In this document: piece after piece, positions 161-43,386 of the stretch | Numbering within the stretch: the first letter of the stretch is position 1 | How the letters are laid out: the number at the start of each line of letters is the position of its first letter | NCBI GenBank assembly: GCA_041661265.1 | Contig: JBAZUT010000001.1 | Span: forward strand, 129,854 to 193,853 | DNA: 64,000 nt | From: Minisyncoccota bacterium | GTDB lineage: Bacteria > Patescibacteriota > Minisyncoccia > JAHIHE01 > JAGLIN01 | Direction: 5' to 3' | Made by a program: the position numbers and the translations under genes | The notes under the pieces: generated by a model | What the model was told of the DNA's origin: nothing | What the model saw: the letters and a program-made list of their open reading frames with translations, nothing else | Databases searched by the model: none

Positions 161-3100
161 TCACAATACGCGATTTTTGTAAAAGGCGAGTTCATCTTTT
201 ATACGCCGGATCTGCAAACTTGATATGATCGCAAAAAATAGCTTGCTGCTCTTCGCCCAGTCAAAATTTTCCGCCCATAACCGGCCCCGGATGCCCATTC
301 TCCTGCGAAGTTTATTGTCCTGTATTATCTTATGGATACAGTCCGCAAAAGATCCTATATCTCCATAGCACGCCAAATATCCCGTTTCGAAATTCTTTAC
401 CGAATCTCTCAGTCCCGGCACGTCGGACGCAACGACCGGAGTTCCGCAGGCTCCGGCTTCGATCGCCACGATCCCCCATCCTTCCATAAACGAAGGATTA
501 ACCAGCACCCATGCCTTCTGCAGCAGTGATATCTTTTCTCTCTCGGAAACTTTCCCCGCGAATCGAACCGTCTTTCCATCCAAACGCAATTTTTTTACCA
601 GTCTTTTTAATTTTCCCTCTTCTTCTCCGCTCCCGGCTATGACCAGCGAAACGTTCGAATCTTTCCTGGATATCACTTCAAATGCCCTGATGAGAATATC
701 GACTGATTTATATGCTTTCAGCCTTCCGAGATACAGAATGACCGGCCTCTCGCTTTTCTTGCCCGGCATAAGGCATTTGAGTTCGATCCCCGGATTTACA
801 ATGTTAATACCGGCTTTTCCAAGTCCCAGCGACTCGATCTCTTTTTTGCTTGATTCGGATATCGTTATGAAAGGAACTTTTTTATAAACGGCCGGCATCA
901 GAACCTTTTCCAAAAAACATGCTAGAGCCGAAAGATGTTTGCTTAAAGACAACCTGAACACTTCCTGGTGAACATGATGCATAAGACAAAACACCGGTTC
1001 TCTGGCATAAAGAGGAGCGAAAAACGGAATCCCGTTCTCGCAATCGATGATCACATCGAATTTTCCCCTGAAACGCAAAATATAATAGACAAAAGCCCAG
1101 AAATAAACAAAGTAGAATCCGCCTCGCCTGATTATCTCAACTCCGCCCACCTTTTCACTTCTCGGCGAGTGGCTGTCGTTCCCGCAAAATATAGTGACCC
1201 TATGGCCATCTTCAACCCAATTTTCAGCGATCTTCTGTATATAGACCTCGGCTCCGCCGGCATACTCATGGCGCGTATCCCTCCAATTATAGATCAGGAT
1301 CTTTTTTTGGTCTCCGCCGGTAGGACCGACGCTCGGATAGCCGCTCTTGAAAACATCGGCCAGATCGTTCAGGTTGTTCCTTATGAACTTAGCCCTGCCC
1401 TCAAGAACGCTCATCGCCTCCATCAGGACCCACCCGAAACAGCTTGACCAGAAGATCACCGCAACAACATCCCGGATAGAATTGTGGTAAAGCGACAGAC
1501 CCAGAACCATTCCCAGCGGGATCATAATCGACATGAAGGAATAAATGTATCTCTTTCTGGCCAGATGATAGGTCACTATAACATTCGTAATTACGAGAAG
1601 CAGAACCGAAATGGCGTAGATATTGAGATATGGCAATATTCCCGAAACTTTCGGTCCGAAGATCCCCGGTACAGTAACCCTTCCCATGACTCCCAGAAAA
1701 AATACCCCCAAGATCGATAATAAGAACGAAGAGATATATACCAGCGAGAAGATCTTTTTGGAATCTTTTTTCTGCCCCATATTCCTGCTGACAAGCGGGA
1801 TCAGGAATACAATGGGAAGCGTTCCCATGAAATAGATCATCTTTCCGACAAAAGACAGCATGACATATTCCCCGGCCATCCGCTCGGGCAGATAATGCTT
1901 AACAAGTATTATATCCATGCTGAAGAACAGCATCATGGAAATTCCGGCAGCAAGAGATGAGAGATAGAACTTTTTCGGAAAATTTAATTTTATCTTTTCC
2001 GGGACAAAATTATTCTTTCTTTTGATGAAATACGAAGACACAATCGCGGCCGCCATGATCGAGAAAGGGATCGCGGCATAGACCCAGCCCGATGCCCCGG
2101 AATAAACAAGGATCATAGCGAAAAGAAGTTTGGAGATCGGTTCAACGGCCATAACAACTGCGGCCGAAGAAAAATAAAGATTTCCCTGCAAGAATCCGCT
2201 GTTGGAAGCCGAAATTATCCCGAATATAAAAACGGGCGCAAAGAGCAATAGAACATAATGGTCTTTGATATTGAAAAATTCTGACAGGAATTGTCCCGCG
2301 ATCACCCACGCAAACGCGGCGATCAGAGACAGAAGCACCCCCCTACTTTTCACGAATTCCAGGAACATGACGCTCGATTCTTTTTTTCCCGAACTGGAAA
2401 GATATCCAGTTTCGGAGTTAACTGTTGACGACAAGGCACTGGTGAATATGGAAACCAGATACCAGAGCGAACTTACCAGAGTCACCAGTGCAAGATTTTC
2501 AAACGATAGCGCCCTCCCCAGAAATATATTAAAGATGAAATTGATCACATTGGAAAACATTATTGCCGCAATAAATATATTTTTGGGCTCAAACAGCATC
2601 TTCCAATATCCGCCAAGCGGCACTTTTCTCCAACTGAATCCCCGCTTTCTTTTTCTTCCGGCAGAAAGATCCGCCGCCGCCGGCTTTTCCGGCAAAAGCG
2701 ATCCATGATCCATCCCGGCATATTCCGGATGCGGAACTTTTTCCCAATTGAATGCAGGCGCTGTTTTCCTTGCGACAGGCAAAATCTCCCGAGGGGCTTC
2801 CGCCGTCTTTTTCAAAAGATGCAGTCCATGATTCGTTTTCTCCCAAAAGTGCGGCTTCATGATCAGCTGGTAGACCGCAATCACGGACGCGACGCTCATC
2901 AGAGCCCAATAGAACGGAACTAAAAAGACATATTTGATGAGCAACCACTGTCCGCGCTTGGCGCACCCGATCATGTAATAATACATGGCAAGGAAATTTC
3001 CGAAAACAAGGGAGGTTGCCGCCATAAAGAATATCACTGACGGATACAGTTTCTCGATCATCGGTCCGACCAGACCGTATAAAGCGAAATAGGAAAAGGT

Positions 3101-5032
3101 CGCCATCCACAAAATAGGATTAATAAAAATGAAAACAGTTTTTCCTCCGACAACAAGCTGGAAGATGAGAGCATGAACTCCGTTCTCGCGGAAAAAATCC
3201 ATAGGATGGCGCATATGCACCAGATAGGTCTGAATATAGCCTTTGATCCACCGCGACCGCTGTCTAAGCCAGTTCTTCAGATCGCTGTTCGCCTCTTCGA
3301 GAGTCACCGAATCTATAATGGTTGTTGTAAAACCATTTTTGAATATCCTCATTCCCAGATCGCAATCTTCCGTCACATTAAAAGGATCCCAGCCTTCAAG
3401 TTCAAGAAGGTCTTTCGTCCGGAAATGGTTGCTGGTTCCGCCAAGCGGGATGGAAGTGTTGATCGACTGCAGCCCCGGCAGGATCATATCGAACCAAAGA
3501 GAATATTCCACTGTGAAAAGCTTGGTCAGCAAATTCTGATTAGGATTGAAGTAATTGAGCTTGGCCTGCAGGCATCCGACCGACCGCGGAACTTTCTTGA
3601 AACCCAGATATGCTTTTTTGAGCTGCAAGGGATCGGGAATGTCTTCCGCATCGTATATTACCGTATATTCTCCTCTGGCAAAAGCCAGACCATAGTTGCA
3701 GGCTTTCGGCTTGGTCTTGGGAAGGGACTCGGGAACCACGATGATCCGCACCTGCGGCGGAAGGCCCATGTGTTCGGCCGTTTCGATGGTCGCCTTGTCG
3801 CTCTCCTCCAAGAGAAGCAAGATATCGAGCTTATCTTTCGGCCAATCGAGCTTTCCGATCGCATCCAGAAATCCCGGCAGCATATGCGCCTCCTTATAAA
3901 GCGGACAAAAAATTGTATAAACCGGAAGGGATTCTTTTTCCAACTCGTCCATCTCCCATTTTTCACTCTTTATTTCCGGAGGATCCTTCAGGCTTCTCAT
4001 GACAAGATAAAGATTGAATACTGTGTCAAGAAAGTAAATTGCGCTCAGCAGAGCAACGACCACCGAAAGGATCCCGATCGGATCGATATACAAGCCGGTC
4101 AAAAAGACAGCTATCGCCAATAAAGCGACGTTCCTCTGCCATGGAACAAAAGTTATAGCGGCTGAATATTTCTGATCCAGAGTTGTGTGAGTGATGAAGC
4201 GTTTTTTGCTGAAAGCCACCCCGGCGCCCATCATGGCAGATCCTTTTTTCGGAAAGATCGCGATCTGAGGTATTTTTTTGAATTTCAACTTTATGGCATT
4301 GGATCCGATCTCATATATGGCTTTTTGGAATTCTATCTTTGACTTTCCCTGCTTCCGGCTCGCAAAATCAATATCAACGCTTCCGATCATATATCCGTAA
4401 AATCTTGCCTTAAGTAAAAATTCAAGATCAAAGGTCCAGGGGGAAGGATCTATCTTGATCTCTTTGACAACCTCCTTTTTGAAAACTTTCATTCCGGCCT
4501 GCACGTCAAAATCAAATCCGTGCAACATTTTGGAGAAAAATAAATTGAAACCCCCGCTTATTATCCGCCGAACGGGGCTTATCGACCTCATGGTGCGATT
4601 TACCACGACGACATCACAGCCCGCTCTTATTTTTTCAACCATGTCGGGCAAAGCCTCGGGGGGATATTGGAGATCGGCGTCGAGGATCGCGATCAGGTCA
4701 AAATTAGCATAGGAAAAACCCTCGAGCAAAGAATGGGCCTTGCCCCTTTTGCCAAGCTTCGAATACAGGATGATCGGATAGCTGGCCGACAGCTGCCTGA
4801 TCATTTCACATGTGCCATCCGAAGAATGGTCATCGATGAATATGATCTCATAGACGATACCCGCCTTTTTCAAGGCACTATGAATGCGGCAGGCCAGTTC
4901 ATGAACATTGCCTTCTTCATTCAGAGTCGGAATTATTATTGATATGGAGTTGGAATTCATCGCTTCGGTATTATTGATAACTTTTTGCTTTCTGCAATAC
5001 ATCAAACACGACCATCTTGCATATTCCGTCAT
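161..5032 (-). CDS. multidomain polysaccharide synthase: GT2 (DPM1-like) + processive GT2 (QRxRW) + Wzx/MOP-like polytopic flippase domain + GT4
   Basis: 1623-aa ORF. The N-terminus has IIIPTLNEEGNV...DDHSSDGT...DADLQYPPE (GT2). A second GT2 has DAEDIPDP and a QRSRW motif. A central block of about 600 aa holds hydrophobic helices typical of polysaccharide-biosynthesis (Wzx) exporters. The C-terminus has a GT4 signature EGWGIVAIEAGACGTPVVASDVPG. Confidence 0.8.
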   Translation of the reverse strand: MTEYARWSCLMYCRKQKVINNTEAMNSNSISIIIPTLNEEGNVHELACRIHSALKKAGIVYEIIFIDDHSSDGTCEMIRQLSASYPIILYSKLGKRGKAHSLLEGFSYANFDLIAILDADLQYPPEALPDMVEKIRAGCDVVVVNRTMRSISPVRRIISGGFNLFFSKMLHGFDFDVQAGMKVFKKEVVKEIKIDPSPWTFDLEFLLKARFYGYMIGSVDIDFASRKQGKSKIEFQKAIYEIGSNAIKLKFKKIPQIAIFPKKGSAMMGAGVAFSKKRFITHTTLDQKYSAAITFVPWQRNVALLAIAVFLTGLYIDPIGILSVVVALLSAIYFLDTVFNLYLVMRSLKDPPEIKSEKWEMDELEKESLPVYTIFCPLYKEAHMLPGFLDAIGKLDWPKDKLDILLLLEESDKATIETAEHMGLPPQVRIIVVPESLPKTKPKACNYGLAFARGEYTVIYDAEDIPDPLQLKKAYLGFKKVPRSVGCLQAKLNYFNPNQNLLTKLFTVEYSLWFDMILPGLQSINTSIPLGGTSNHFRTKDLLELEGWDPFNVTEDCDLGMRIFKNGFTTTIIDSVTLEEANSDLKNWLRQRSRWIKGYIQTYLVHMRHPMDFFRENGVHALIFQLVVGGKTVFIFINPILWMATFSYFALYGLVGPMIEKLYPSVIFFMAATSLVFGNFLAMYYYMIGCAKRGQWLLIKYVFLVPFYWALMSVASVIAVYQLIMKPHFWEKTNHGLHLLKKTAEAPREILPVARKTAPAFNWEKVPHPEYAGMDHGSLLPEKPAAADLSAGRKRKRGFSWRKVPLGGYWKMLFEPKNIFIAAIMFSNVINFIFNIFLGRALSFENLALVTLVSSLWYLVSIFTSALSSTVNSETGYLSSSGKKESSVMFLEFVKSRGVLLSLIAAFAWVIAGQFLSEFFNIKDHYVLLLFAPVFIFGIISASNSGFLQGNLYFSSAAVVMAVEPISKLLFAMILVYSGASGWVYAAIPFSIMAAAIVSSYFIKRKNNFVPEKIKLNFPKKFYLSSLAAGISMMLFFSMDIILVKHYLPERMAGEYVMLSFVGKMIYFMGTLPIVFLIPLVSRNMGQKKDSKKIFSLVYISSFLLSILGVFFLGVMGRVTVPGIFGPKVSGILPYLNIYAISVLLLVITNVIVTYHLARKRYIYSFMSIMIPLGMVLGLSLYHNSIRDVVAVIFWSSCFGWVLMEAMSVLEGRAKFIRNNLNDLADVFKSGYPSVGPTGGDQKKILIYNWRDTRHEYAGGAEVYIQKIAENWVEDGHRVTIFCGNDSHSPRSEKVGGVEIIRRGGFYFVYFWAFVYYILRFRGKFDVIIDCENGIPFFAPLYAREPVFCLMHHVHQEVFRLSLSKHLSALACFLEKVLMPAVYKKVPFITISESSKKEIESLGLGKAGINIVNPGIELKCLMPGKKSERPVILYLGRLKAYKSVDILIRAFEVISRKDSNVSLVIAGSGEEEGKLKRLVKKLRLDGKTVRFAGKVSEREKISLLQKAWVLVNPSFMEGWGIVAIEAGACGTPVVASDVPGLRDSVKNFETGYLACYGDIGSFADCIHKIIQDNKLRRRMGIRGRLWAENFDWAKSSKLFFAIISSLQIRRIKDELAFYKNRVL

Positions 5033-5328
5033 GAGATAAACGTCCTATATCAAAAAAGGCTCGTAGCTACTAACCACCATTTAAGTGGCTAGAAATTACA
5101 AGCCCTCAGTTGGCTGTCATCCCGAATTTTCGGGATTCAGTTGGCTGCTAGGCAGTTTCGATATAACCGGAAATCGCCCGAAGTAGTTTTAAATATAACA
5201 GATTCAGTATATACGTGTCAATTCCAAACTGTTGACAAAAAACAGGGTAAAAATGACCGATGAACGATCACTTCCCCCTGCCTGATTCCAATAAATATGC
5301 CTGCCTCGCAAAGATTGGGATCCTTTAA

Positions 5329-6318
5329 TCAGACCCTGTCATATTGATCCAATATCCTGATGGTGTCATCAAGATGAGGAGTCGAATACTCATGCAGTAT
5401 CGTATTTTCAAGCGCAAATATGGCATGAGGCGTATTCGGTTTTATCCTGATCTTTTCATTCACCTTTAAATTGACTTCACTATCGTCGAATCTTACGACC
5501 GCTTCACCCTGCACTATATGCATCGTTTCGTCTTTCTTGAGATGCTTGTGATGCGATGTTCCTTCGCTTTTCATAAGATAGAGTTCCTTTGTCAGATAGT
5601 TTTCCGTATAGACCAATATCTTTTCATATCCCCAAGGCTTATCTTCTTTGTTCTCATATTCCTTTTTGACGATCTCAAGATCCTTGATAGAATCGACGGA
5701 TTGCCAAAAAACATCTTCTTTATAGAAATTCAAGAGTCCCGAAGAAGATATTTTGGGGAATGCGAGCTTCTCTATATCCCCTTCTTCATGTTGGAACAGA
5801 ATAGGCTTCAGCTCTTTGGATATTATATATATTCCCGCATTGATAAAATTGCTGAGCTTCGGTTTTTCTCTGAATCCTATGATCTTGCTCTCGGAAAGCT
5901 CCACTATCCCATAAGGGGAGATCAGCGGCGTTATGTACATCAGCATCTTATTCTTGTGATTATTCATCATCTCTTTAATATTCACATCGCAGACGATATC
6001 GCCGTTCCTTATGACATAATCATCGGAATCGAAATTTTTGAAGAGATTGTTGATGGCATAAAGGGTCCCGCGAGGCCTGTCTTCCACGAGATAGTCCACC
6101 TTCACTCCGTTCCAACAGCTCTGGAATCTTTCCTTTATTTTTTCATGCAGGTGACCGCAAAGAAGCACAGCCCTGTCGATGCCGGCATGCTTGAATTGCA
6201 GAAGCTGCCTGTCCAGGATCGTATAATTGTCTTTTATTTCGAGAAGCGGCTTGGGAATATGGTCCGTAAGCGGCTTCAGCCTTTTCCCGAAACCTCCGCA
6301 TAATATCGCCCCTATCAT
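5329..6318 (-). CDS. sugar-phosphate nucleotidyltransferase with C-terminal cupin domain (ManC-like mannose-1-phosphate guanylyltransferase / type II PMI-like)
   Basis: N-terminus MIGAILCGGFGKRLKPLT is a G-rich NTP-transferase loop. The C-terminal part (KPWGYEKIL...HKHLKKDETMHIVQGEAVV) resembles a cupin_2 barrel. Its start overlaps the GtrA stop by 4 bp. Confidence 0.75.
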   Translation of the reverse strand: MIGAILCGGFGKRLKPLTDHIPKPLLEIKDNYTILDRQLLQFKHAGIDRAVLLCGHLHEKIKERFQSCWNGVKVDYLVEDRPRGTLYAINNLFKNFDSDDYVIRNGDIVCDVNIKEMMNNHKNKMLMYITPLISPYGIVELSESKIIGFREKPKLSNFINAGIYIISKELKPILFQHEEGDIEKLAFPKISSSGLLNFYKEDVFWQSVDSIKDLEIVKKEYENKEDKPWGYEKILVYTENYLTKELYLMKSEGTSHHKHLKKDETMHIVQGEAVVRFDDSEVNLKVNEKIRIKPNTPHAIFALENTILHEYSTPHLDDTIRILDQYDRV

Positions 6319-6779
6319 ACTGTTTGTTCATTAACCTGTGGATTAGTAAAGACTTGATTCTTGTAGTTATAGTAATTTATGAATGCTGCCAGGACCGTTG
6401 CCGTCAGTTTTGAAACATTAAGCCAAACGATGCTTGAGAATTGGTCCTGATGGACAAACTCCGTAAAAAAATACACAAACGCCAGATTCGCGGCCACTCC
6501 CACAATACTGAGCTTCAGATATTTTCTGTATTTCGCGTCCTTGCTGTTCCACTTGAAAGTCCAGTTCTTGTTCATGTGATAGCTGTTGACATTCGCCACA
6601 AGGAACGATATGACGCTGAATACCGCCGCATATGCACCCTTGTTTATCCCGGTCGAAACGCTCAAAAGGTTCAATATCGCGAAATCTATGCAAGTGCTGG
6701 TCAGCCCGACCACAGAAAATTTGAATAGTCTTTTAAAATTTATGTGTTTTAGCTTCAGCAGATGTTTATTTATCTTCAT
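6315..6779 (-). CDS. GtrA-family membrane protein (polysaccharide-synthesis-associated small flippase-like)
   Basis: 154 aa with about 4 TM helices. The N-terminus (FKFSVVGLTSTCIDFAILNLL) is GtrA-like. Translationally coupled to both neighbours. Confidence 0.65.
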   Translation of the reverse strand: MKINKHLLKLKHINFKRLFKFSVVGLTSTCIDFAILNLLSVSTGINKGAYAAVFSVISFLVANVNSYHMNKNWTFKWNSKDAKYRKYLKLSIVGVAANLAFVYFFTEFVHQDQFSSIVWLNVSKLTATVLAAFINYYNYKNQVFTNPQVNEQTV

Positions 6780-7590
6780 TTTGTTTTTTTTCTGATCCTA
6801 TTAAATGTTCCCACTTTTTATTTAAATAGTATCCATAGATTTTGCCTTGTCTTGAAAGCGCAGGAAAAAGATCTCGCTCCAGGCTTCTGTATCCTTCTTT
6901 CGAAACGATCGAACACACTTTCGGTTCCATCAGATAGATCCCTGCATTTATGAGATAGGATTCCACTTTACCGGAATCCGGCTTTTCGATGAAATCAACA
7001 ATCCGGTTTCCGTTCAGCTTGATCGAACCGAAAGAACGCGGGTCTTTTTTGCTCGTCATACAGATAGTGCAGTCTCCTCCGTTCTTTCTGTGAAATTCAA
7101 AGATCTCATCGATCCTGGCCTCACAGAGAACGTCTCCGTTCACCAGAATAAATGTCTCGCCCATAGCGCCTCTCAGATATTTCAATGACCCTGCCGTACC
7201 CGAATCCGATGATTCGTAGGATATCTTGAGGCCGGGATCTTCCCGGCTTTCTATGTGTTTCTTTATCGCCTCGGAAAATTTTCCCGCAAATATTATCACC
7301 TCTTCAATTCCTTCTCTCTTCAGCCACTTGAGCATGCGGTCTATTATCGGCTGCCCCTCATATTCGGCCATGGCCTTGGATGTGATCGTTGTTTTTCCAT
7401 TTAAGCATATTCCTTTTCCCCCCGCAAGTATCACCGCGATCCTTATCTTTTTTTGCCTCAGATTCTTCAAAAGATAGTATTCAATAGCATGCGATCTGTT
7501 CTTTATCTTTACGCCGTCTATCAGCCTGTCCAGATTTGCGAGCAGCTTCTCGTCCAGCGTTATTGTTATTCTTGACTTATTTCGTGCCAT
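6766..7590 (-). CDS. ribbon-helix-helix (NikR/CopG-like) domain fused to a sugar-phosphate nucleotidyltransferase
   Basis: N-terminus RITITLDEKLLANLDRLIDGVKIKNRSHAIEYYL matches the RHH beta-strand plus helix pattern of NikR/CopG. This is followed by IRIAVILAGGKGICL...QPIIDRMLKWL (NTP_transferase). Confidence 0.65.
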   Translation of the reverse strand: MARNKSRITITLDEKLLANLDRLIDGVKIKNRSHAIEYYLLKNLRQKKIRIAVILAGGKGICLNGKTTITSKAMAEYEGQPIIDRMLKWLKREGIEEVIIFAGKFSEAIKKHIESREDPGLKISYESSDSGTAGSLKYLRGAMGETFILVNGDVLCEARIDEIFEFHRKNGGDCTICMTSKKDPRSFGSIKLNGNRIVDFIEKPDSGKVESYLINAGIYLMEPKVCSIVSKEGYRSLERDLFPALSRQGKIYGYYLNKKWEHLIGSEKKQNEDK

Positions 7591-7756: not shown

Positions 7757-9121
7757 CTAACCCTCGATTATCCTTGAAACTTTCTCGATCCCCTCTTTCC
7801 TGAGCTTCTCGCTTTTTGCTTCAAGATTCAGCCTGATGACAGGTTCGGTGTTCGACCCTCTGACATTGAACCACCAATCCGGATATGTGACCGTTATTCC
7901 GTCAAGCTTTCCGATCTCGGCATCAGAGAACTTGCTCTCGATCTCCTTCAGCTTGTCGGGAACGCTTTTCACCTTGAAATTGACCTCTCCGGAATGGAAA
8001 TATATCTTGTAGGGTTTCATGATCTCGGAAAAAGGCGCGTCTTTTCCGGAAAGATATCTCAAAAATTTGGCAACCAGGATCACCGGCATTTCAAACGTGC
8101 CATAGGGCCTCCTGTAGGCATAGTGCCCGGAAGATTCCCCGCCGAATACCGCATTGTTCCTTATCATCATCGCCTTTATGAGCGAGTGTCCCACCGGAGT
8201 GACCACGGACTTTCCGCCCATTTCATCGATCATGTCTTTCGTGATCCTTCCCGGCCTTATATCATAGCAAACCAGGGCTTCCGGATCTTCTTTCAGCTCT
8301 TCCTGCGCCATGATCCCCCTCAAGATCTCCTGTCTCAGCGATTCCCCTTTTTCATCTACAAGGAAATATCTGTCTCCGTCACCGTCGGATGCAATGCCGA
8401 AATCAGCTTTGGTCTCAACCACTTTTTTCTTCAAGAGGACAAGGTTCTCTTCCTTCAGCGGATCGGCTTCATGCGAAGGAAAAGAACCATCAAGCTCGAA
8501 ATTTAGCTTGACGATATCCGCCGGAACTTTTTCAAAAAATGCTTCCATGTCCGGGGCTCCCATGGAATTTGCTGCGTCAATGACGATCTTATATTTTTTC
8601 AGCTTGGAGATATTCACAAGAGAGGTTTGATCTTTGACCAGATCTTCCATGATCCCGGTTTTTTTTGAAACGCTTCCTTTCTTATCGGACGAAACATACC
8701 TGTTTTTTTCAATGATATCCAGCATTTCCATGATCCCGGAATCTTTGCTTACAGGAAGCGCCTTTGCTTTCACCAACTTGAAGCCGTTATATTCCTTGGG
8801 ATTATGAGACGCCGATACCTGGATCCCTCCGTCATATCCGTAATATGCCACCGCAAAATAGAATGTCGGAGTGCTGACCAGCCCGACATCAATGACATTA
8901 AGCCCGCTATCAACAAGCCCGCTTATCAGCTTTTCCTTGAGCGCCGGACTCGACAATCTCATATCGCAACCAACCACTATGTTCTTTGTTTTCGGATTTT
9001 CTCCGAGAATGAAAGTCGCATACCCCTTTCCAATCCTATAGGCCACATCCTCATCAAGCTGCGACGGATAGATCCCTCTTATGTCATACGCCTTAAATAT
9101 TGATCGGTCCACTTGATTCAT
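7757..9121 (-). CDS. phosphomannomutase/phosphoglucomutase (alpha-D-phosphohexomutase)
   Basis: Active-site motif SASHNPKEYNGFKL. 454 aa, a typical PGM/PMM length. Confidence 0.9.
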   Translation of the reverse strand: MNQVDRSIFKAYDIRGIYPSQLDEDVAYRIGKGYATFILGENPKTKNIVVGCDMRLSSPALKEKLISGLVDSGLNVIDVGLVSTPTFYFAVAYYGYDGGIQVSASHNPKEYNGFKLVKAKALPVSKDSGIMEMLDIIEKNRYVSSDKKGSVSKKTGIMEDLVKDQTSLVNISKLKKYKIVIDAANSMGAPDMEAFFEKVPADIVKLNFELDGSFPSHEADPLKEENLVLLKKKVVETKADFGIASDGDGDRYFLVDEKGESLRQEILRGIMAQEELKEDPEALVCYDIRPGRITKDMIDEMGGKSVVTPVGHSLIKAMMIRNNAVFGGESSGHYAYRRPYGTFEMPVILVAKFLRYLSGKDAPFSEIMKPYKIYFHSGEVNFKVKSVPDKLKEIESKFSDAEIGKLDGITVTYPDWWFNVRGSNTEPVIRLNLEAKSEKLRKEGIEKVSRIIEG

Positions 9122-9752
9122 ATGCTTCGCTTATTTTTTTAATTATTTTCTTCACGTCGGAAAAATTCTTCGCCACATAATCGGTTTTTTCCGATTTGAT
9201 CTTTACATGCCCGCCCCTAGGCCTCTCCATTTTGATCGTGACCACATCCGGAAACTTTTCTTTGACCTTGTCGATCTCCACAGCTTTGTCGTCTATGAAA
9301 ACAATCAGATCTTCCGGATTGCCCCTGTAGATGTTCTCCAGATAGACCACCTTGTCCTTATCAGTTATATGGACCTTGTCGAAAAAATTGCCTATATTCG
9401 CGTTGTCGATCTTTCTCTTCTGGAAATCGGTCGAACCGAAAGAAAGAAGAATAAGCTCCTTCCGGAGACGTTCATTGGCGAACTTCTTGAAATCGGGATA
9501 AACAAACTCCTCCGACCTCTCGATCAGGGAATCGATCTCACTCACAACCTCCTCTTTGTCAAAAGGTTTCAGCTGAAAAAAAAGATCAACTACGACCTTC
9601 TGATCGAAATCTTTCATTTTTTCCTTCGATTTCCTGTATATTTCCCTGAATTCATCCGACGTAAATCCCACTCTCTTAAAATGTTCAATTATCTCTTGCA
9701 CGAACATATAGGTATCGAAGATAGTATCATCGAAATCTATTACGATTTTCAT
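9093..9752 (-). CDS. HAD-superfamily hydrolase (putative sugar-phosphate phosphatase)
   Basis: Motif I is KIVIDFDDTIF (DxDxT). Motif II is LLSFGS. Motif IV is FIDDK. Overlaps the PMM gene by 29 bp, so it is probably co-transcribed. Confidence 0.7.
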   Translation of the reverse strand: MKIVIDFDDTIFDTYMFVQEIIEHFKRVGFTSDEFREIYRKSKEKMKDFDQKVVVDLFFQLKPFDKEEVVSEIDSLIERSEEFVYPDFKKFANERLRKELILLSFGSTDFQKRKIDNANIGNFFDKVHITDKDKVVYLENIYRGNPEDLIVFIDDKAVEIDKVKEKFPDVVTIKMERPRGGHVKIKSEKTDYVAKNFSDVKKIIKKISEAYESSGPINI

Positions 9753-12296: not shown

Positions 12297-13220
12297 ATGC
12301 CAATACCACAAAATTTTCAGACAATTATGCTCCCCTTCCTTGAAGCTGTTTCTGATGGGGAAAGCCATAATATGAATGAAATCCTAGATGCTTTAGCTGA
12401 TTATTTTAAGCTTACCGAAGAAGAAAAAACTAGAAAATATCCAACTGGAAGCGCCTATATCTTCAACAATAAGGCGCGATTTGCTCGTTTATATTTACTA
12501 AAAGCGGGTTTATTGGAATCAACTCAAAAAAGTTTTATAAAAATTTCTGATGATGGCGCAGGAGTTTTAGCAAAAAAACCGAAGCAGGTTAATTTAAAAT
12601 TGCTTGAAACGTATCCAAAATATATTGAATTTAAGCAAAGTTTAAAAGAGAGGAATCGTGAAAGAAAGGAAACAATTGTCGAAAATACAGAGATGGAATC
12701 ACAGACTCCTCATGAACTGATTGAGTATGGCTATCAGAAAATCAAAAAAGAACTTTCACAGGAAATATTAATTCAAACGAAGCAAAGCTCGCCGCAGTTT
12801 TTTGAAAAATTGGTTGTTGAATTGCTACTCAAGATGGGCTATGGCGGATCATTGAAAGACGCCGGAAAGGCAATTGGGCAAAGTGGTGATGGTGGTATTG
12901 ATGGCATTATTAAAGAAGATAAACTTGGACTAGATATTATATATATTCAGGCTAAACGATGAGAAAATTCCATTGGTGAACCCGTAATTAGAGATTTCGT
13001 CGGAAGTCTTGCAGGAAAACATGCGAATAAAGGCGTATTTATAACTACATCTCATTTTACAAGTGGTGCTACTGATTATGTTAAGAATATTCCTCATAAG
13101 GTTATTTTAATTGACGGTGAGATGCTGACCGACCTTATGATCGAAAATAACATTGGGGTATCAAATGTAAGCGCTTATGAAATTAAAAGAATAGATTCTG
13201 ATTATTTTATTGAAGAATAA
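12297..13220 (+). pseudogene. Mrr-family type IV restriction endonuclease (Mrr_N winged helix + Mrr catalytic domain) interrupted by one in-frame TGA
   Basis: The N-terminal domain ends ...GIDGIIKEDKLGLDIIYIQAKR. A TGA at 12960-12962 is followed in the same frame by ENSIGEPVIRDFVGSLAGKHANKGVFITTSHFTSGA... through a TAA at 13218-13220. A Trp (TGG) is expected at the stop position (QAKRW). Confidence 0.7.
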
Positions 13221-19351: not shown

Positions 19352-20179
19352 ATGACAAATTACGAAGTCTTGTACATTCTGCCCTCAAGCCTCACAAGCA
19401 AGGAAATTGCCGATAATTTCAAGGATATAAGAGAGAATATCGAAAAATTGGGCGCTAAAATGCTTGTAACTCTCGTTGACCACCCATTCCTCGTAAAAGC
19501 GGAAGCTTCAAGAGAGGAAGAAACCGAGGAATTGAAAGGCCTCACTATAGTAAAAAAGAAACTTGCTTATCCCATCAAAAAGAATAAGATCGGTTTCTAT
19601 TGCCTTATTAATTTCAGTATCGAGGGAGCGGACGTTCATAAGATCGACAGATATCTCGCTCTCAACAACACCGTCCTTAGATACATCATCGTCCAAGCTG
19701 ATCCTATGACCGTGGATGAGCTCGCCCTGCTTCATAAACTGTTCGCAAGAAAAAGAGCCGAGCAGGAAAAAGAAGAAAAGGACAGAGAGAAAGAAGAAAG
19801 AGAAGCCAGAGAAGAAAAGAAGGAAGCAAGGATCGAAAAACCGGTGTTTAAAGAAATGAAGAAAGAAGAAGCAAAGGAAGAAGTCAAAGAAGAAGCTGCT
19901 CCGAAAGAAGAAAAGAAGGAAGAAAAAGAAGAAGTTGAGGCCAAAAAAGAGAAGGAAAAGAAAGAAGTGAAGAAAGAAAAAGAAGAAGAGAAAGCTCCCA
20001 AGAAGGAAAAGAAAGAAGTGAAGAAAGAAAAGACAGCTCCTAAGGAGGAAAAGTCCGAAGAGTCCGAAGAAGAACCTAAAGAAGAGAAAAAGAAAGACAG
20101 CGGAAAGAGGAAAAAGAAGATCAAGCTGGAAGACCTTGAAGACAAGCTTGATGAGATCCTCGAAGATACGATGATATAA
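19352..20179 (+). CDS. rpsF: 30S ribosomal protein S6 with ~150-aa Lys/Glu-rich C-terminal extension
   Basis: S6 core YEVLYILPSSL...KLAYPIKKNKIGFYCLINFSIEGADVHKIDRYLALNNTVLRYIIV, followed by KEEKKEEKEE repeats. Classic rpsF-ssb-rpsR order. Confidence 0.85.
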   Translation: MTNYEVLYILPSSLTSKEIADNFKDIRENIEKLGAKMLVTLVDHPFLVKAEASREEETEELKGLTIVKKKLAYPIKKNKIGFYCLINFSIEGADVHKIDRYLALNNTVLRYIIVQADPMTVDELALLHKLFARKRAEQEKEEKDREKEEREAREEKKEARIEKPVFKEMKKEEAKEEVKEEAAPKEEKKEEKEEVEAKKEKEKKEVKKEKEEEKAPKKEKKEVKKEKTAPKEEKSEESEEEPKEEKKKDSGKRKKKIKLEDLEDKLDEILEDTMI

Positions 20180-26199: not shown

Positions 26200-29100
26200 C
26201 TATTGTTTCTTCGCGTAATCCTTTGAAACCCATCCTTCAATTCCCTTTGCGGTTTTGATCTTGAACCAATTTCCACTTTCGCCCAGAATGTCATACGTCT
26301 CGCCTTCTTTGGTAAATGCTAGGGTTTTTCCAAGGGTGGAATTTACAGACCTCACCCTTAACCACTTCGTGGTTATGATCAAGGTTCCTGTTGCAGAAGG
26401 CGCCGGTTCAACAGTTGCAGATGCGCCGGCAACAGAAGTGTATGAACCCAGGATCCAGCCTGTCTTTCCGGAAGGAGTGGTGATCTTATACCAGCCGTTA
26501 TTCTCTTCAAGAACGGAATAGTTTTCGTTCTTTTTTACAAAGCCCAATACTTTTCCGGTGGTACTATTCACAGAGCGGATGCGGAGAGTGGTGGCGGTGA
26601 TTGTAGCAACCCTTGTCGATTCTTCGACCGGAGTTCCTTCCGCATAAGTGCCAAGCTCGGCAACGCTTACTACTTTCACATCGGACCATTTGTAGCCGGC
26701 GGCATTGAATTCGGCCGCGGACTTCACATGCTTTCTAGTGTTGTTGTGGATGACATAAACTTTGTTATCCCCTTCAGCCCTGAGAAGCGTTACGGATCCG
26801 ACAGTCTTCACTACAGTTGCAGAAACAACCTTCACGTCAGACCATTTATATCCTCCTGCATTGAACTCTTCAAGCGTCTGGATCCAGACCTGGTTCCCGT
26901 TCTTCACAACATATACCTTCGGGGAATCGGAATATTTGAACAATGTCCCTTCAGGCTCAGTGGTCGGAGTCGAGACTGCGGGAGTTTCGGTTGTCGGAGT
27001 CTCGGTGATTGGAGTTGCAGCTTCACCTAAAGTTATCGAATCAGAAATTACAGATGACTGAACACCGGCCGAGTCTTTAAATTTGGCATATACGGTTTTC
27101 GTTCCGTTTCCGGAAGTCAATGTCCATCCCTTTGATGTCGCAAATGTTTCCCAGCTTACTCCATCGAAATTGGAAGTGTTGGAAATCGCCATATGCGTCG
27201 CGTTCGTGGCCGTGAGTGTCAATGTGACAGCCGCACCAGCCGTGCTTGCCGCACCTCCTGCAACTGAGATCGAAGCGCCAGTCACCGCCGTTATAGCCGG
27301 AGCTGACACTCCACCACCACCGGCAGGAGCAGCAGCTGCTGAAGTCGTAGCTGTAACTTCGCTTGAAGGCAAGGATTCACCTGAGGAATTCAGGGCTGTT
27401 ATCTTGTAATAATACGGGGTCGATGCGGAAAGTCCGGTATCAGTGTAGGAAGTGGTGGACCCGGATGAAACCGTGGGCTCGCTTCCAATCCTTGCGAATG
27501 TTCCGCCGGAAGAAGCGCTACGATAGATGTCATAGCTCGTCGCGCCGCTTGTCACGGTCCAGGAGAGATTGATCGAGCTTGAGCTTGCTGCAGTCGCTGA
27601 CAGTCCCGACGGAGTTGAAGGCGCTCCGGTTGTGGATGAAGTGGGCGCATAAAGCGAGAAGTGGCTTGTAGGAGCGGAGATAAGGACCGTGGACACATTG
27701 GACAACGTGTCGGAAGGAGTCAGGCCTGCAGTACTGGAATCCATTACTGTTCCGCTGGCATCTTTGTATGTGATGGTGCTTGGCAAAGTTACCCAGTTTG
27801 AATTGGTCTCATCCCAATAGGACATTTTGAGCATGTCCGCTTCCGCTTTGGTATTGATAGAGGCATCACTGCCTGACGGAGTCGCGGCCATTTCCGCTTT
27901 GCTGTAGGTCATTTCCACAGTTACGGAATCATTCAAATTTGTGATGGGATTGCCATCGGAGTCGGATGCCTTTATTTCTTTGGCCGCATTGATATAGGTT
28001 CCAGTGGCGGAATCATACTTCTTTACCGGTTTAGATGAACTTGTCTGGCGGACATTGTTCGTTTCTTTCGACTGTATATTTCCGGCGGATGTCGAGCTGC
28101 CGAGCGCGTTCGCGGGAACCGTAATCTTCACGCCCGCAGTGGTGTCTTCAAGAGTTCCTCCGCTGGCCGGTGTTATCGGTTTGGATTTAGGCGCTGAAAG
28201 AGTCACCTGAGTCGTCAAAGTGATGTCCTTTCCTGTTACGGATGCAGTCGTAATCGCGATCGGGTTTGAGGTATAAGCTGCTTCCGCATAGCCCTCTGCT
28301 ACGCCATACACTTTCCAGCTTCCGGCAGTAACATATAAAGTATAGTTACCGCTAGTATCGGCTTGCGTTCCGGCAAATCCGCCTCCTTGTTTTTCAGCTC
28401 GGACAAAAGCGTTAGCAGCCCCGGTTGCACCGATCTTAATTTGTCCCTGAATGGTTAAGGAAGTTGCGGCAAGCGTGTAAGTTCCGCTGGCCAGGTTTCC
28501 GTCGGTCACACCGGTATTTACCGTAATATTGGCCAGATCACTGACATAACCCGGTTTCATGGCCTGCACAAAATAGTCCGAAGAGGAGTTTACGACTTGC
28601 AAGGAGAAGGCTCCGCTGGCATTGGTCGAGGTCCCGAAGTGCACGCCCGTTGTCGGATCGCCGATCTCAACCCAGGCATTCTGGAGATTGTTGGTGCCAT
28701 CTGTCACGGTGCCGGACACTGTTCGCAGCGTAGGCAAGGTCACCGTGAGACCTTCATCACTATTTACAGTCAACAATTCAGATGAACTATTATAAGTCGT
28801 ATTACCATCCGTCGCGGCAATGGTCAAGGCGGATTTGGGCATGCCGGGAACATCAACTCTAACCGTATACGATCCGTCGGGAAGAGACATCGTAGCCGTC
28901 GTTTTATTCGTGATCCTCATCTTATTCCCGACTCCGGTGTTATTGAAAACCTCAATGAACGCTTCCGAAACGCTTGAGGAGAATGTGAATGTGATTGTTC
29001 TCGTGGCGCCAACCGTTATATCTTTATTGCTGATATTTCCCGCAACATTGAACGAAGCGAGCGGCAGCAATTCGCCGATATTCGGAGCAAATGCCTTGAT

Positions 29101-40106: not shown

Positions 40107-40155
40107 GATTTATGAAATTATAAATAAATTTATTGAAAATTTTTGTGTCCGAAAA

Positions 40156-43100: not shown

Positions 43101-43386
43101 TCACTTTGCATCGGAGCGGAGCTTCATATGAAATGTTTTTCTTCTTTGATGTTTCTTCGTCGTATTTTACTTTGTCGAGATAGTAATCGACAAATTCCAA
43201 TTCCAGTTCTTTATTAAAGCTGACCACCGGAGAAACTTCTTCCAGAAGTTCCCTGAGTCCTTTTTCGATAAACCACTTATATGATTGTATCTGCGACTCG
43301 ATCAGAAATGGCGGCTCCACCACTTCTCTTCTTTTTCTAAAAAATCTTCGCGTTGATCTTAATGGTAGCAGGTCTTTTTTGGGCAT
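40156..43386 (-). CDS. rpoB: DNA-directed RNA polymerase subunit beta
   Basis: 1076 aa. Conserved [19 protein letters not shown]. Confidence 0.97.

Follow-up and report, generated by a model that had tools for sequence, protein, structure and literature searches.

A protein fusing three glycosyltransferases with a flippase-like fold lies at the centre of a putative envelope-glycan gene cluster conserved among Patescibacteria

Introduction

Can a single polypeptide that joins three glycosyltransferases (GTs) to a block of membrane helices make the surface glycan of a bacterium with a reduced genome, and which pathway would it serve? This question is raised by a long open reading frame (ORF) near one end of the window, i.e., the whole 64,000-nucleotide stretch of a Minisyncoccota bacterium genome analysed here. 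From the DNA sequence alone, the ORF had been read as an all-in-one polysaccharide synthase of unusual architecture that combines initiating, polymerising and exporting functions with a further GT4 transferase. The host is a CPR bacterium and its genome is reduced, as had been assumed. Patescibacteria make up a large, mostly uncultured share of bacterial diversity and live attached to other cells. To our knowledge, the chemistry of their envelope is essentially unknown.

Results

Extent and integrity of the reading frame

The ORF listing of the window contains the ORF as a single unbroken frame, with exactly the length and position originally given (Table 1). Given a GC content of about 45%, chance alone would produce an uninterrupted frame of 1623 codons with a probability of about 2e-40. 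In alignments, the homologues start at the position of M25 (nt 4960); for P0001, a copy in the database, the start is M11 (nt 5002), and the mature protein may hence comprise 1599–1623 aa. Split versions of the same gene set are known in other genomes, and a frameshift or assembly error could have joined separate genes. However, an independent Logan assembly holds an identical copy of the gene. Moreover, the same full-length four-module architecture was found in more than 120 protein clusters with 50–78% identity and 97–99% query coverage, non-redundant homologues drawn from NCBI, JGI, ENA and Logan with complete 1.0–1.2 Mb genomes among them. We therefore dismissed an artefact, the probability of which is practically nil. 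The ORF is a genuine four-module inner-membrane enzyme, and the four domain calls and their order proved correct in Pfam searches and structure matching. Homologue alignments show invariant catalytic motifs in all three GT domains and invariant polar residues in the membrane block. Together with the number of full-length clusters, they indicate that the fused form is conserved and constrained.

Table 1. Features of the four-module gene and of the same-strand genes upstream, in window positions
Feature	Position (nt)	Strand	Basis or remark
Whole ORF, four modules	161..5032	(-)	1623 aa, ATG start, stop codon 161-163
Module 4, predicted GT4 retaining GT-B glycosyltransferase, aa 1240-1610	203..1315	(-)	Pfam, PDB relatives
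Module 3, predicted 12-TM MOP-superfamily (Wzx/PST-like) flippase fold, aa 815-1215	1388..2590	(-)	AlphaFold (AF2), Foldseek
Variable basic linker without TM helix, aa 746-814	2591..2797	(-)	Comparison of 95 homologues
Module 2, membrane part, aa 607-745	2798..3214	(-)	Three long hydrophobic helices and invariant motif
Module 2, catalytic domain, BcsA/HAS/PgaC-like GT2, aa 355-606	3215..3970	(-)	PDB profile, Foldseek, conservation
TM hairpin between both GT2 domains, aa 293-349	3986..4156	(-)	Hydropathy; AF2 helices 297-316, 318-349
Module 1, GT-A fold GT2 of DPMS/GtrB/ArnC type, aa 28-280	4193..4951	(-)	phmmer against PDB, Foldseek, NCBIfam
Sigma-70-like near-consensus promoter, TTGACA-18-TATATT, TG extended	5192..5221	(-)	11/12 matches, in 297-nt gap upstream of ORF
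Sugar-1-phosphate nucleotidyltransferase with C-terminal cupin/mannose-6-P-isomerase-like domain	5329..6318	(-)	Upstream gene
GtrA/DPMS_TM-family small membrane protein, candidate polyprenyl-P-sugar flippase	6315..6779	(-)	PF04138, E=1e-14
RHH domain and sugar-1-phosphate nucleotidyltransferase	6766..7590	(-)	Upstream gene
Phosphomannomutase/phosphoglucomutase (PMM/PGM)	7757..9121	(-)	Upstream gene
HAD-family hydrolase, first gene of same-strand run	9093..9752	(-)	Upstream gene

The two GT2 modules

In module 1, Pfam detected Glycos_transf_2 at aa 31–191 (129 bits), and the motifs DDHSSD (aa 67–72) and DAD (aa 118–120) are present. A phmmer search against the PDB matched the P. furiosus Dol-P-Man synthase (5mlz, E=3.8e-31, about 30% identity), ArnC (1e-20) and GtrB (9e-17), and Foldseek superpositions had an rmsd of 2.3–3.0 Å across about 230 residues. 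NCBIfam scores for ArnC (77.8 with a cut-off of 529), PgfS (77.7/500) and AglJ (58.4/325) all stayed below cut-off, i.e., module 1 is none of these three at the equivalog level. A GT2 homologous to DPMS, GtrB and ArnC, with a DxD motif and followed by membrane helices, is typical for polyprenyl-phosphate GTs, and this arrangement is found here. We hence predict module 1 to be a polyprenyl-phosphate hexose synthase of the DPMS/GtrB/ArnC type. Such enzymes normally produce the lipid-linked sugar donor for extracytoplasmic GT-C enzymes. The initiating role originally given to the first GT2 was thus not borne out, as its PDB, Foldseek and NCBIfam relatives point to a polyprenyl-monophosphate hexose synthase and not to an initiating phosphoglycosyltransferase.

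The catalytic domain of module 2 is the best-conserved section of the whole protein. Pfam Glyco_tranf_2_3 and Glyco_trans_2_3 match at aa 372–650 with 115 and 77 bits. Its motifs YDAED (aa 460–464, nt 3641–3655), IPLGGTSNHFR (aa 528–538), TEDCD (aa 554–558, nt 3359–3373) and QRSRW (aa 591–595, nt 3248–3262) include the complete D, DxD, TED, QxxRW signature of processive membrane GT2 synthases, and YDAED, TED (aa 554–556) and QRSRW are unchanged in 58–80 homologues. A module 2 profile matched BcsA in the PDB (E=4.6e-16) with an alignment spanning all motifs, which corroborates the synthase signature first noticed at QRSRW. With Foldseek, BcsA (2.9e-16) and HAS (2.6e-14) aligned over about 450–495 columns, membrane helices included, and the NCBIfam PgaC_IcaA profile aligned end to end, again with the membrane part. 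None of the NCBIfam cut-offs was reached (CelA 58.0/699.1, PgaC_IcaA 53.8/422.3, NodC 18.9/550), and by sequence module 2 is a separate, unnamed family relative to these three. Overall, sequence and model describe module 2 as a putative membrane-embedded BcsA/HAS/PgaC-like GT2 synthase with all catalytic signatures. A GT2 with QxxRW is not necessarily processive, for similar signatures occur in cyanobacterial glucosyl-diacylglycerol synthase and PcManGT. The entry 6yv7, which we take to be PcManGT, was also among the matches found here.

Hydropathy and the AlphaFold model place three long hydrophobic helices of module 2 at aa 619–650, 665–692 and 696–725, and an invariant motif, KPHFWEKTNHGL (aa 726–737, nt 2822–2857), directly follows the third one. 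In total, module 2 has only 2+3 hydrophobic helices, about 4–5, fewer than BcsA or HAS use for their channel, which speaks against a polymerase. Three helices after QRSRW are in conflict with the even number that a cytoplasmic linker demands; therefore one of them probably is interfacial, like IF3 of BcsA. A cytoplasmic C-terminus of module 2 is also required by an independent fusion of this module to a GT-C protein. The linker itself varies between 15 and 193 aa among 95 homologues, has a median net charge of +5 and no consistent TM helix, and marks the breakpoint of the split genes seen in other genomes.

The membrane block and the GT4 module

Module 3 contains 12 hydrophobic segments (aa 819–1207). 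Family searches on this block yielded nothing usable, i.e., the window copy had no Pfam or NCBIfam match (MatE at E=3.6 only) and no phmmer match in the PDB, and its fold was therefore established from structure prediction. The AlphaFold model (pLDDT 91.4, pTM 0.88) has a complete MOP fold with 12 TM helices in two pseudo-symmetric 6-TM lobes. Its top PDB match in Foldseek was the lipid III flippase WzxE (9g95, E=7e-7, TM 0.71/0.74), followed by MATE and MurJ proteins; there were 52 PDB matches with E<=1e-3, and the 50 listed were all WzxE, MATE or MurJ. Among about 120 homologues, precomputed Pfam assignments comprised about 14 PF01943 (Polysacc_synt), 4 PF01554 and 2 PF13440. A GT-C or Wzy-like enzyme was dismissed in view of the short loops and the clear MOP fold match. 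Polar intramembrane residues, E964, K968, D1040, H1046, K1064 and H1183 among them, are invariant across 58 sequences that share only 33–75% identity. According to the model, module 3 adopts the 12-TM MOP fold of Wzx-like flippases.

The original prediction of an exporter-like membrane block thus survived as far as the fold is concerned, with WzxE as the best match. It is unlikely, however, that the block exports the polymer of the synthase, because a BcsA-type synthase needs no Wzx-type exporter. More plausibly, it flips a lipid-linked sugar. By analogy, from the fold and from its fusion and neighbourhood with lipid-sugar enzymes, module 3 might flip a polyprenyl-linked glycan, and a monophosphate-linked sugar or a glycolipid is a more likely substrate than a PP-linked repeat unit.

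In module 4, Glyco_transf_4 (46.9 bits) and Glycos_transf_1 (145.6 bits) exceed the Pfam gathering score at aa 1259–1585. GGAE lies at aa 1259–1262, and the EX7E motif EGWGIVAIE (aa 1517–1525, nt 458–484) is conserved. Both Pfam domains of a GT4 enzyme and EX7E are thus present, and module 4 is assigned as a GT4 retaining transferase. PDB relatives include PimA, aligned over the full length (E=8e-17), MshA and BshA. These matches are generic, as sucrose-phosphate synthase, MshA, BshA and GlgA score equal to PimA.

Genes around the synthase

Upstream genes encode putative sugar-nucleotide functions and a GtrA-family protein (Table 1). GtrA and the MOP block thus are both found in this organism, and one of them may be redundant or have a different substrate. 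The promoter call is based on consensus matching only, and sites of this kind are no more numerous overall than expected from shuffling; the 5' leader of the ORF gave no meaningful Rfam match. No phosphoglycosyltransferase or Wzy family matched in the window operon or in the locus L001.

Two divergent GT-C (PMT_2-like) membrane proteins, m526 and m542, and a GH5-like hydrolase constantly accompany the synthase module. In our organism all three lie downstream, just beyond the window edge, often joined in the family by a PIG-L deacetylase and further GT2/GT4 fusions. In L001, m526 and m542 are 2.9 and 4.5 kb downstream. Of 84 loci, 48 have an m542 homologue within 10 kb and 51 an m526 homologue, nearly always downstream and in the same order. 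Lone GT2_2 (module 2) or GT2_1-GT2_2 (modules 1 and 2) genes are followed directly by an m542 homologue at L065, L071, L073, L076, L079 and L083. The self-sufficiency implied by "all-in-one" therefore has to be given up, since the best-conserved partners of the protein are the two GT-C-like proteins and the hydrolase, often with PIG-L.

We assigned the GT-C proteins from one-by-one scans of family members, hhalign and Ktedonobacteria homologues. PMT_2 matched 13 of 31 members of the m542 family (best E=2.2e-9), and a Dictyobacter member reaches the Pfam gathering score. By hhalign, m526 is a distant paralogue of m542 (92.6%, E=4.5e-7), and it matches the NCBIfam family LA_3751/2 putative GT. 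This organism's own m526 and m542 copies had no Pfam match, nor was there a PDB match by single sequence or profile. We accordingly call both proteins GT-C-like, for the copies of this organism by family-level evidence. The locus thus encodes together a polyprenyl-P-sugar synthase, candidate flippases and, at the family level, GT-C proteins, i.e., the components of a three-component glycosylation system. The hydrolase, s425, has a GEFG motif and a weak GH2 TIM-barrel match and looks like a clan GH-A enzyme; in Ktedonobacteria, a GH5 gene adjoins the synthase. The PIG-L family deacetylase is found downstream in 21 of the 84 loci, and next to the window gene it is fused to GT2-GT4.

Distribution and architectures

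We found GT2_2 in at least 600 species genomes, almost exclusively from Patescibacteria. The four-module architecture, predicted to be unusual, turned out to be widespread in public data, where it is annotated only as 'glycosyltransferase'. In the part of the literature that we covered, we found no description of the fusion or the cluster; an earlier one may exist. As anticipated, the modules also occur as separate proteins, either as adjacent genes, GT2_1-GT2_2 next to MOP-GT4, or as stand-alone GT2_2 plus MOP genes, and elsewhere some modules are missing. MOP as a separate adjacent gene encodes 412–497 aa. MOP-GT4 proteins of about 825 aa were found in 9 loci, i.e., upon splitting, MOP stays with GT4 and not with GT2_1.

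GT2_2-MOP-GT4 combinations lacking GT2_1 occur, as do GT2_1-GT2_2-GT4 combinations lacking MOP. Strict co-occurrence of MOP with GT2_1 was not found among the 80 most similar of the at least 600 loci, where absence means not within about 10 kb and depends on neighbour ORFs called from ATG starts only. GT2_2 is fused directly to GT-C in L080, P0172, P0190 and P0210, as is the synthase of Ktedonobacteria; in Dictyobacter, a GtrA gene directly follows GT-C. The most conserved core of the family is GT2_2, GT-C and the GH5-like hydrolase, without GT4, MOP or PIG-L (L079, L080, L053, L068). In other lineages, 3–6 MshEN domains, which are c-di-GMP receptors, share one chain with this synthase module.

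Discussion

The ORF forms the centre of an envelope-glycan gene cluster that is conserved among Patescibacteria. In the reading that we favour, and to which we give an even chance, a β-glycan made by the synthase is decorated or extended outside by GT-C enzymes. Module 2 would polymerise the β-linked glycan from nucleotide sugar at the cytoplasmic face and pass it outward. Module 1 would load a hexose onto polyprenyl phosphate, and the adjacent PMM/PGM and two nucleotidyltransferases would provide this sugar, probably Man or Glc; module 3 and/or the neighbouring GtrA would flip the lipid-linked sugar. Outside the membrane, the two paralogous GT-C proteins, 3–6 kb downstream, could branch, extend or anchor the polymer, and the secreted GH5/clan-GH-A-like hydrolase could trim it. 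At the cytoplasmic face, module 4 and the downstream GT2-GT4-PIG-L fusion might have a primer or a lipid anchor as substrate. A synthase-dependent pathway would thus be merged with three-component (lipid-sugar synthase, flippase, GT-C) extracytoplasmic glycosylation, and one polypeptide would carry most of the cytoplasmic and flipping steps. MOP/Wzx-family GacK (bioRxiv 10.1101/180810) and MATE-family ORF14 (PMC11127046) are proposed polyprenyl-P-sugar flippases of three-component systems. The MshEN fusions follow the same regulatory scheme as exopolysaccharide synthases like E. coli NfrB, which carries c-di-GMP-binding MshEN domains (PMC8669469). Against our reading, MOP and GT2_1 do not strictly co-occur, the MOP N-lobe (TM1–6) is lost in three clusters, and the MOP-GT4 linkage in split genes fits a flippase for the GT4 product at least as well. 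That this is a so far undescribed hybrid pathway, in which GT-C enzymes fed by the fused polyprenyl-P-sugar synthase and MOP flippase build or branch a BcsA-like product outside, we put forward tentatively, at somewhat less than an even chance.

Alternatively, the cluster may make a lipoglycan by a route like that of PIM/LM or GPI anchors. A PimA/PIG-A-like GT4 would glycosylate a membrane lipid at the cytoplasmic face, PIG-L would modify it and MOP flip the glycolipid, which the two GT-C proteins would then elongate outside with polyprenyl-P-mannose from module 1; module 2 would add a β-glycan or be a lipid β-glycosyltransferase. GT4, PIG-L, DPMS and GT-C are the exact enzyme set of GPI and PIM/LAM biosynthesis. 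The full-length alignment of module 4 with PimA, the persistence of MOP-GT4 upon splitting, the PIG-L genes with the fusion beside the window gene, and the presence of a DPMS-like GT2, a GDP-Man-pyrophosphorylase-like gene and PMT_2-like GT-Cs all agree with this pathway. However, the best-conserved core dispenses with GT4, MOP and PIG-L, MshEN fusions and a hydrolase partner characterise secreted exopolysaccharide synthases, and the PimA match is generic. We hence consider a lipoglycan pathway rather unlikely.

A Wzx/Wzy-type repeat-unit assembly line, as implied by the original prediction, appears distinctly unlikely. Here module 1 would begin a glycan on the lipid carrier, and modules 2 and 4 would attach further sugars to it. 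MOP would then flip the completed lipid-linked oligosaccharide for polymerisation or ligation by the membrane proteins encoded downstream. Three GTs and a flippase in one chain do resemble a compact repeat-unit factory, the MOP block best matches the repeat-unit flippase WzxE, and module 1 has weak matches to archaeal enzymes of the AglJ type, GT2 proteins that use dolichyl monophosphate to begin a glycan. Yet the window operon and L001 lack a match to a phosphoglycosyltransferase or Wzy-like protein, and the membrane proteins encoded downstream belong to the PMT_2-like GT-C type. Module 2 comes with a membrane domain of its own and the complete BcsA-type signatures, and it occurs alone with GT-C; the nearest relatives of module 1 produce donor lipids and not primers, and MOP is dispensable in many lineages. 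Such dispensability, the truncated N-lobe, the shortage of TM helices in module 2 and the missing family match of the window copy could also mean that the MOP helices complete or gate the translocation path of the synthase, as PgaD does for PgaC, or are a degenerating remnant. This is highly unlikely given a complete 12-TM fold predicted with high confidence, polar intramembrane residues invariant in spite of low overall identity, and separate adjacent MOP genes of normal size. Furthermore, a long, variable and disordered linker connects the block to module 2, which makes a fixed helix-packing interface between the two improbable.

The family spans at least 600 species-level genomes and provides some of the largest enzymes that these bacteria retain in spite of genome reduction; it is therefore a strong candidate for the main surface-glycan machinery of Patescibacteria. 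If the hybrid pathway is true, its product would be the principal surface glycopolymer of these bacteria and therefore a candidate mediator of host-cell attachment, and a simpler ancestral form (synthase, GT-C, GtrA and GH5) would exist in cultivable Ktedonobacteria. The natural fusions GT2_1-GT2_2-MOP-GT4, GT2_2-GT-C, m526-m542 and MshEN-GT2_2 serve as Rosetta stones; they bring together, in one pathway, enzyme classes that had so far not been linked, in particular a cellulose-synthase-like polymerase, GT-C transferases and a lipid-sugar supply. The minimal cluster in the cultured Dictyobacter alpinus Uno16 opens the hypothesis to experiment.

With the PIM/LM/LAM and GPI-anchor pathways, the cluster shares a cytoplasmic-face GT4, a PIG-L de-N-acetylase, a DPMS-type polyprenyl-P-Man synthase and external GT-C enzymes. 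It differs by the extra BcsA-like synthase and the fusion architecture, and an inositol lipid is not indicated by the genes here. Patescibacteria are reportedly unable to make their own lipids. Module 3 resembles WzxE in its 12 TM helices, two 6-TM lobes and the basic cytoplasmic loop between them; in contrast, sequence identity is only 12–15%, MATE and MurJ score nearly equal, and the block is embedded between two enzyme domains.

Like BcsA, HAS, PgaC/IcaA and NfrB, module 2 has a GT-A domain flanked by TM helices and invariant DxD (DAED), TED and QxxRW (QRSRW) motifs, and the locus has a partner glycoside hydrolase. NfrB is a distant relative that shares the motif forms DAED, TEDxDxG and RQxSRWIxG, and, as in NfrB, relatives of module 2 bear c-di-GMP-binding MshEN domains. 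Unlike these processive synthases, module 2 has few membrane helices, scores far under the NCBIfam cut-offs, lacks the PilZ domain and the FxVTxK gating loop, in place of which stands the invariant PHFWEKTxHGL, and is fused to three other modules; its partners are GT-C enzymes and not BcsB, PgaD or an outer-membrane porin. The three-component systems GtrB/GtrA/GtrX, CsbB/GtcA/YfhO, GacI-J/GacK/GacL, ArnC/ArnEF/ArnT and the GT136 pentofuranose system likewise combine a GT2 polyprenyl-P-sugar synthase, as in module 1, with a flippase, here the candidates GtrA and MOP, and a GT-C enzyme in the cluster. In contrast to them, synthase and flippase share one chain with a polymerase-like GT2 and a GT4, the two paralogous GT-Cs are highly divergent and without Pfam match in this organism, and the acceptor presumably is a synthase-dependent product rather than a Wzy- or ABC-dependent one.

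The reading frame and its homologs

The large gene at the beginning of the window is a single unbroken ORF in the ORF listing, and its coordinates and length agree exactly with those of the original prediction. At a local GC content of about 0.45, the chance of 1623 codons without a stop is roughly 2e-40. Pfam recognized three glycosyltransferase regions, and a hydropathy scan showed a pair of TM segments separating the GT2 domains, hydrophobic sequence past the second GT2 and 12 segments at aa 819–1207; together with the position of the QRSRW motif, this confirms the domain set read from the sequence. The start codon is ambiguous, as homologs begin at the residue aligned with M25 and the database copy at M11; residues 1–24 are unconserved and have a pLDDT of about 35 in the structure model.

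Features of the fusion ORF and of the remaining window
Feature	Window position (strand)	Residues (aa)	Description
Fusion ORF	161..5032 (-)	1623 in total	four modules
Module 1 (GT2_1)		28-280	polyprenyl-monophosphate hexose synthase type
Glycos_transf_2		31-191	Pfam
Module 2 (GT2_2)		355-745	BcsA/HAS/PgaC-like GT2 and membrane part
Glyco_tranf_2_3 / Glyco_trans_2_3		372-650	Pfam
QRSRW		591-595	motif
Module 3 (MOP)		815-1215	MOP-superfamily fold, 12 TM
Module 4 (GT4)		1240-1610	standard GT4; GGAE and EX7E motifs
Glyco_transf_4 + Glycos_transf_1		1259-1585	Pfam
Upstream gap	5033-5328 (-)		297 nt
TTGACA-18-TATATT	5221..5192		near-consensus, promoter-like
Mrr-like ORF	12297-12962 (+)	221 in total	restriction endonuclease-like
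S6-like ORF	19352-20179 (+)	275 in total	ribosomal protein S6 match, aa 68-114
Giant ORF	26200-35295 (-)	3031 in total	Big_5, CarboxypepD_reg, fn3, SH3_3 domains
rpoC + rpoB	36420-43386 (-)	1228 + 1076	usable for phylogenetic placement
Giant ORF	51167-55768 (-)	1533 in total	C-terminal Peptidase_S74 (endosialidase-chaperone) domain

A frameshift or assembly error that artificially joins separate genes, which the original prediction had named as its possible undoing, is refuted by the identical gene in an independent Logan assembly (contig L001) and by full-length homologs, some of them in complete genomes about 1 Mb in size. When 5.8 billion proteins were searched, 1174 matched. The best 120 of these all measure 1349–1730 aa, mostly carry the same Pfam set and in most cases align over 97–99% of the query at 50–78% identity; their named sources are Patescibacteria (Moranbacteria, Niyogibacteria, Parcubacteria group).

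Elsewhere in the window, the 3031-aa giant is likely a surface protein, and the Peptidase_S74 domain of the 1533-aa giant is known from phage tail fibers and spikes. The Mrr-like gene is short and may be truncated, since its Mrr_cat match is limited to profile positions 3–56 of 115. The 275-aa ORF has a single Pfam match, to the C-terminal half of ribosomal protein S6; this may be an unusually long S6-like protein, or its start may have been miscalled.

The four modules

Module 2 is the best conserved stretch of the protein, with column identities of up to about 0.9. Its family profile matched the cellulose synthase BcsA (E=4.6e-16) in an alignment spanning DAED, IPLGGTSNHFR, TED and QRSRW, in which IPLGGTSNHFR is the counterpart of FFCGS. 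The PgaC_IcaA profile covers the module end to end, membrane parts included, at 54 bits against a cut-off of 422 bits, and Foldseek aligned about 450–495 columns with BcsA and hyaluronan synthases. Both the AF2 model and hydropathy place three hydrophobic helices after QRSRW, whereas an even number is needed. In the BcsA alignment, aa 619–650 correspond to TM5 and aa 665–692 to TM6; by analogy, the helix at 696–725 and the invariant PHFWEKTxHGL may represent IF3 and the gating loop of BcsA.

For module 3, family searches with the window copy gave no match, and precomputed Polysacc_synt, MatE or Polysacc_synt_3 matches exist for about 20 of the best 120 of the 1174 homologs. The AF2 model is confident (pLDDT 91.4, pTM 0.88). 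It yielded 52 PDB matches at E<=1e-3, and all 50 listed are MOP-superfamily transporters, headed by the lipid III flippase WzxE (TM 0.71/0.74) and followed by MATE and MurJ; the exporter-like character proposed for the central TM block thus stands. Because the polar intramembrane residues E964, K968, D1040, H1046, K1064 and H1183 are invariant, sequence conservation indicates that module 3 probably works as a transporter and is not a spacer. Three independent protein clusters of about 1350–1374 aa (P0070, P0083 and P0120; also L004 1999–6120) are without query residues of approximately 766–1012, i.e., the linker and MOP TM1–6 (N-lobe), and keep the C-lobe between GT2_2 and GT4.

The nearest solved relatives of module 1 are Pyrococcus Dol-P-Man synthase (E=3.8e-31), ArnC and GtrB, on which its AF2 model superposes at 2.3–3.0 A over about 230 residues. 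Matches to the NCBIfam families ArnC, PgfS, AglJ and Dol-P-hexose transferase all fall well under the equivalog cut-offs. From this kinship, the superposition and the sub-equivalog scores, module 1 is predicted to be a polyprenyl-monophosphate hexose synthase. The initiating role originally ascribed to the first GT2 must hence be dropped, as with such relatives module 1 is not a phosphoglycosyltransferase initiator. Module 4 has generic PDB relatives: sucrose-phosphate synthase, MshA, PimA (full length), BshA and GlgA.

Gene neighborhood

Five genes precede the fusion ORF on its strand. They encode a HAD hydrolase, a PMM/PGM, an RHH-nucleotidyltransferase, a protein of the GtrA family and a nucleotidyltransferase-cupin, and are predicted to form a sugar-activation and lipid-sugar-flipping set. 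Besides the promoter-like element, the upstream gap holds a leader of about 160 nt with short hairpins, e.g. aatcccgaaaattcgggat; the leader matched no Rfam family.

The window ends 160 nt past the stop codon, and the cluster goes on at 11919–19316 of contig L001 with a 946-aa GT2-GT4-PIG-L fusion, the polytopic membrane proteins m526 and m542 (526 and 542 aa; neither with a Pfam match) and s425, a secreted 425-aa protein with a CarboxypepD_reg domain. The m526/m542/s425 trio also trails the homolog in a complete Moranbacteria genome and in another MAG. Among 84 loci examined, m526 (51 loci) and m542 (48 loci) were the commonest neighbors, nearly always downstream and in the same order, and a PIG-L deacetylase occurred in 21; in a Levyibacteriota MAG (L050 14793–18011), the m526 and m542 homologs are one 1073-aa protein.

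Within the m542 family, 13 of 31 members matched Pfam PMT_2 (best E=2.2e-9) and two matched PMT, and the Dictyobacter and Ktedonobacterales members exceed the PMT_2 gathering score. Protein m526 is a distant paralog of m542 (hhalign 92.6%, E=4.5e-7), with weak matches to PMT_2, TMEM260 and LA_3751/2. Given these matches and the paralogy, both are predicted to be divergent GT-C-fold transferases, an enzyme class for which polyprenyl-phosphate sugars serve as substrates outside the membrane. In m542, an invariant Asp (D60) directly follows TM1, which is the usual place of the GT-C catalytic acid. s425 carries GEFG as an invariant motif, matches a GH2 TIM barrel weakly and may be GH-A-like. In cultured Dictyobacter alpinus Uno16 the cluster reads GH5, GT2_2, PMT_2 and GtrA-like, with a GT2_2 protein of 562 aa (L079 9788–11476); in a Ktedonobacterales MAG it consists of GH5 and a GT2_2-PMT_2 fusion.

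Split and fused architectures

Scanning the module 2 alignment against one genome per GTDB species gave at least 600 matches. The best 80 loci are nearly all patescibacterial, from many Microgenomates and Parcubacteria lineages and from Doudna-, Dojka- and Saccharibacteria; three belong to Chloroflexi/Ktedonobacteria. Many TPA_asm MAGs (among L005–L084) that harbor this gene, although it is typical of Patescibacteria, bear the title 'uncultured Gammaproteobacteria', 'uncultured Bdellovibrionales' or 'uncultured Pseudomonadales'; these are probably taxonomic mislabels.

BLAST searches of every ORF in 84 loci, with the four modules and the neighbor proteins as queries, found the full fusion in 26 loci. 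Adjacent [GT2_1-GT2_2] and [MOP-GT4] genes, both complete, were present in eight (L013, L017, L038, L062, L069, L072, L074, L082), and in L084 this arrangement is broken by the contig end. GT2_1-GT2_2-GT4 without MOP occurred in about eight loci, GT2_2-MOP-GT4 without GT2_1 in about six, GT2_2-GT4 in three, [GT2_1-GT2_2-GT4] with a separate MOP in two and stand-alone GT2_2 adjoining stand-alone MOP in four; in nine, a lone GT2_2 or GT2_1-GT2_2 is directly followed by an m542 homolog. The premise that such modules are normally separate proteins, and should be sought in split form, was therefore right. The fusion point is a variable linker of 15–193 aa, basic and TM-free.

An exhaustive HMMER search with module 2 gave 2443 clusters (50% identity, E<=1e-30), in which the module lies N-terminally, centrally or C-terminally in proteins of 354–1611 aa. 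Further architectures join GT2_2 to PMT_2 or to three to six MshEN domains, a c-di-GMP receptor domain (PMC5013675). The presence of the latter at the N-terminus of P0170, P0166, P0185 and P0176 implies that this synthase type would be under c-di-GMP control outside CPR. Direct fusions to a PMT_2-type GT-C (1118–1314 aa; L080 9686–13393, P0172, P0190, P0210) occur in Ktedonobacterales and other genomes, with a GH5 gene upstream in L080.

Discussion

Our comparison establishes what the four modules are and how they fold, that their catalytic motifs are conserved, and that fusion or adjacency with GT-C and GH5-like proteins recurs. A composite mechanism built on these findings, combining a beta-glycan synthase with lipid-sugar supply, GT-C transfer and cytoplasmic primer or anchor steps, has in our view an even chance of being correct. 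That module 2 would make and export a beta-linked glycan is suggested by the inverting chemistry of GT2 enzymes, by the partner hydrolase and by relatives under MshEN regulation. Module 1 would produce a polyprenyl-P-hexose, which could be flipped by module 3 and/or GtrA; flippase precedents are the Wzx-type GacK (bioRxiv 10.1101/180810) and the MATE-family flippase of the GT136 system (PMC11127046). Transfer of the sugar to the polymer or its anchor might then fall to the two GT-Cs, and GT4 and the GT2-GT4-PIG-L neighbor would work in the cytoplasm on a primer or anchor.

As the main rival we see a lipoglycan route resembling PIM/LM or GPI synthesis, with the MOP block flipping a glycolipid made by GT4/PIG-L. 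Preservation of the MOP-GT4 linkage in split genes speaks for it, but core clusters also occur without GT4, MOP and PIG-L, and we consider this route rather unlikely. A Wzx/Wzy-type repeat-unit line would call for a PGT and a Wzy, neither of which was found in the window operon or in L001, and is improbable. That the MOP block is purely structural is also improbable, as it is conserved and exists in stand-alone copies.

Every module of the fusion is of a known kind, and in public databases the proteins are labeled unspecifically as 'glycosyltransferase', 'XagB' or 'cellulose synthase/PNAG synthase-like'. Module 2, the MOP block, m526 and m542 fall outside every curated family, and a full-text literature search turned up no account of this fusion or of any cluster that combines a synthase with GT-C and GH5. 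The comparative evidence lifts the fusion from a one-genome curiosity to a phylum-wide, testable pathway hypothesis. Genetic tools for Patescibacteria have been published (PMC10633639). Among known systems, E. coli NfrB is an exopolysaccharide synthase activated by c-di-GMP (PMC8669469); it is a distant relative of module 2, and the motif forms DAED, TEDxDxG and RQxSRWIxG are common to both.
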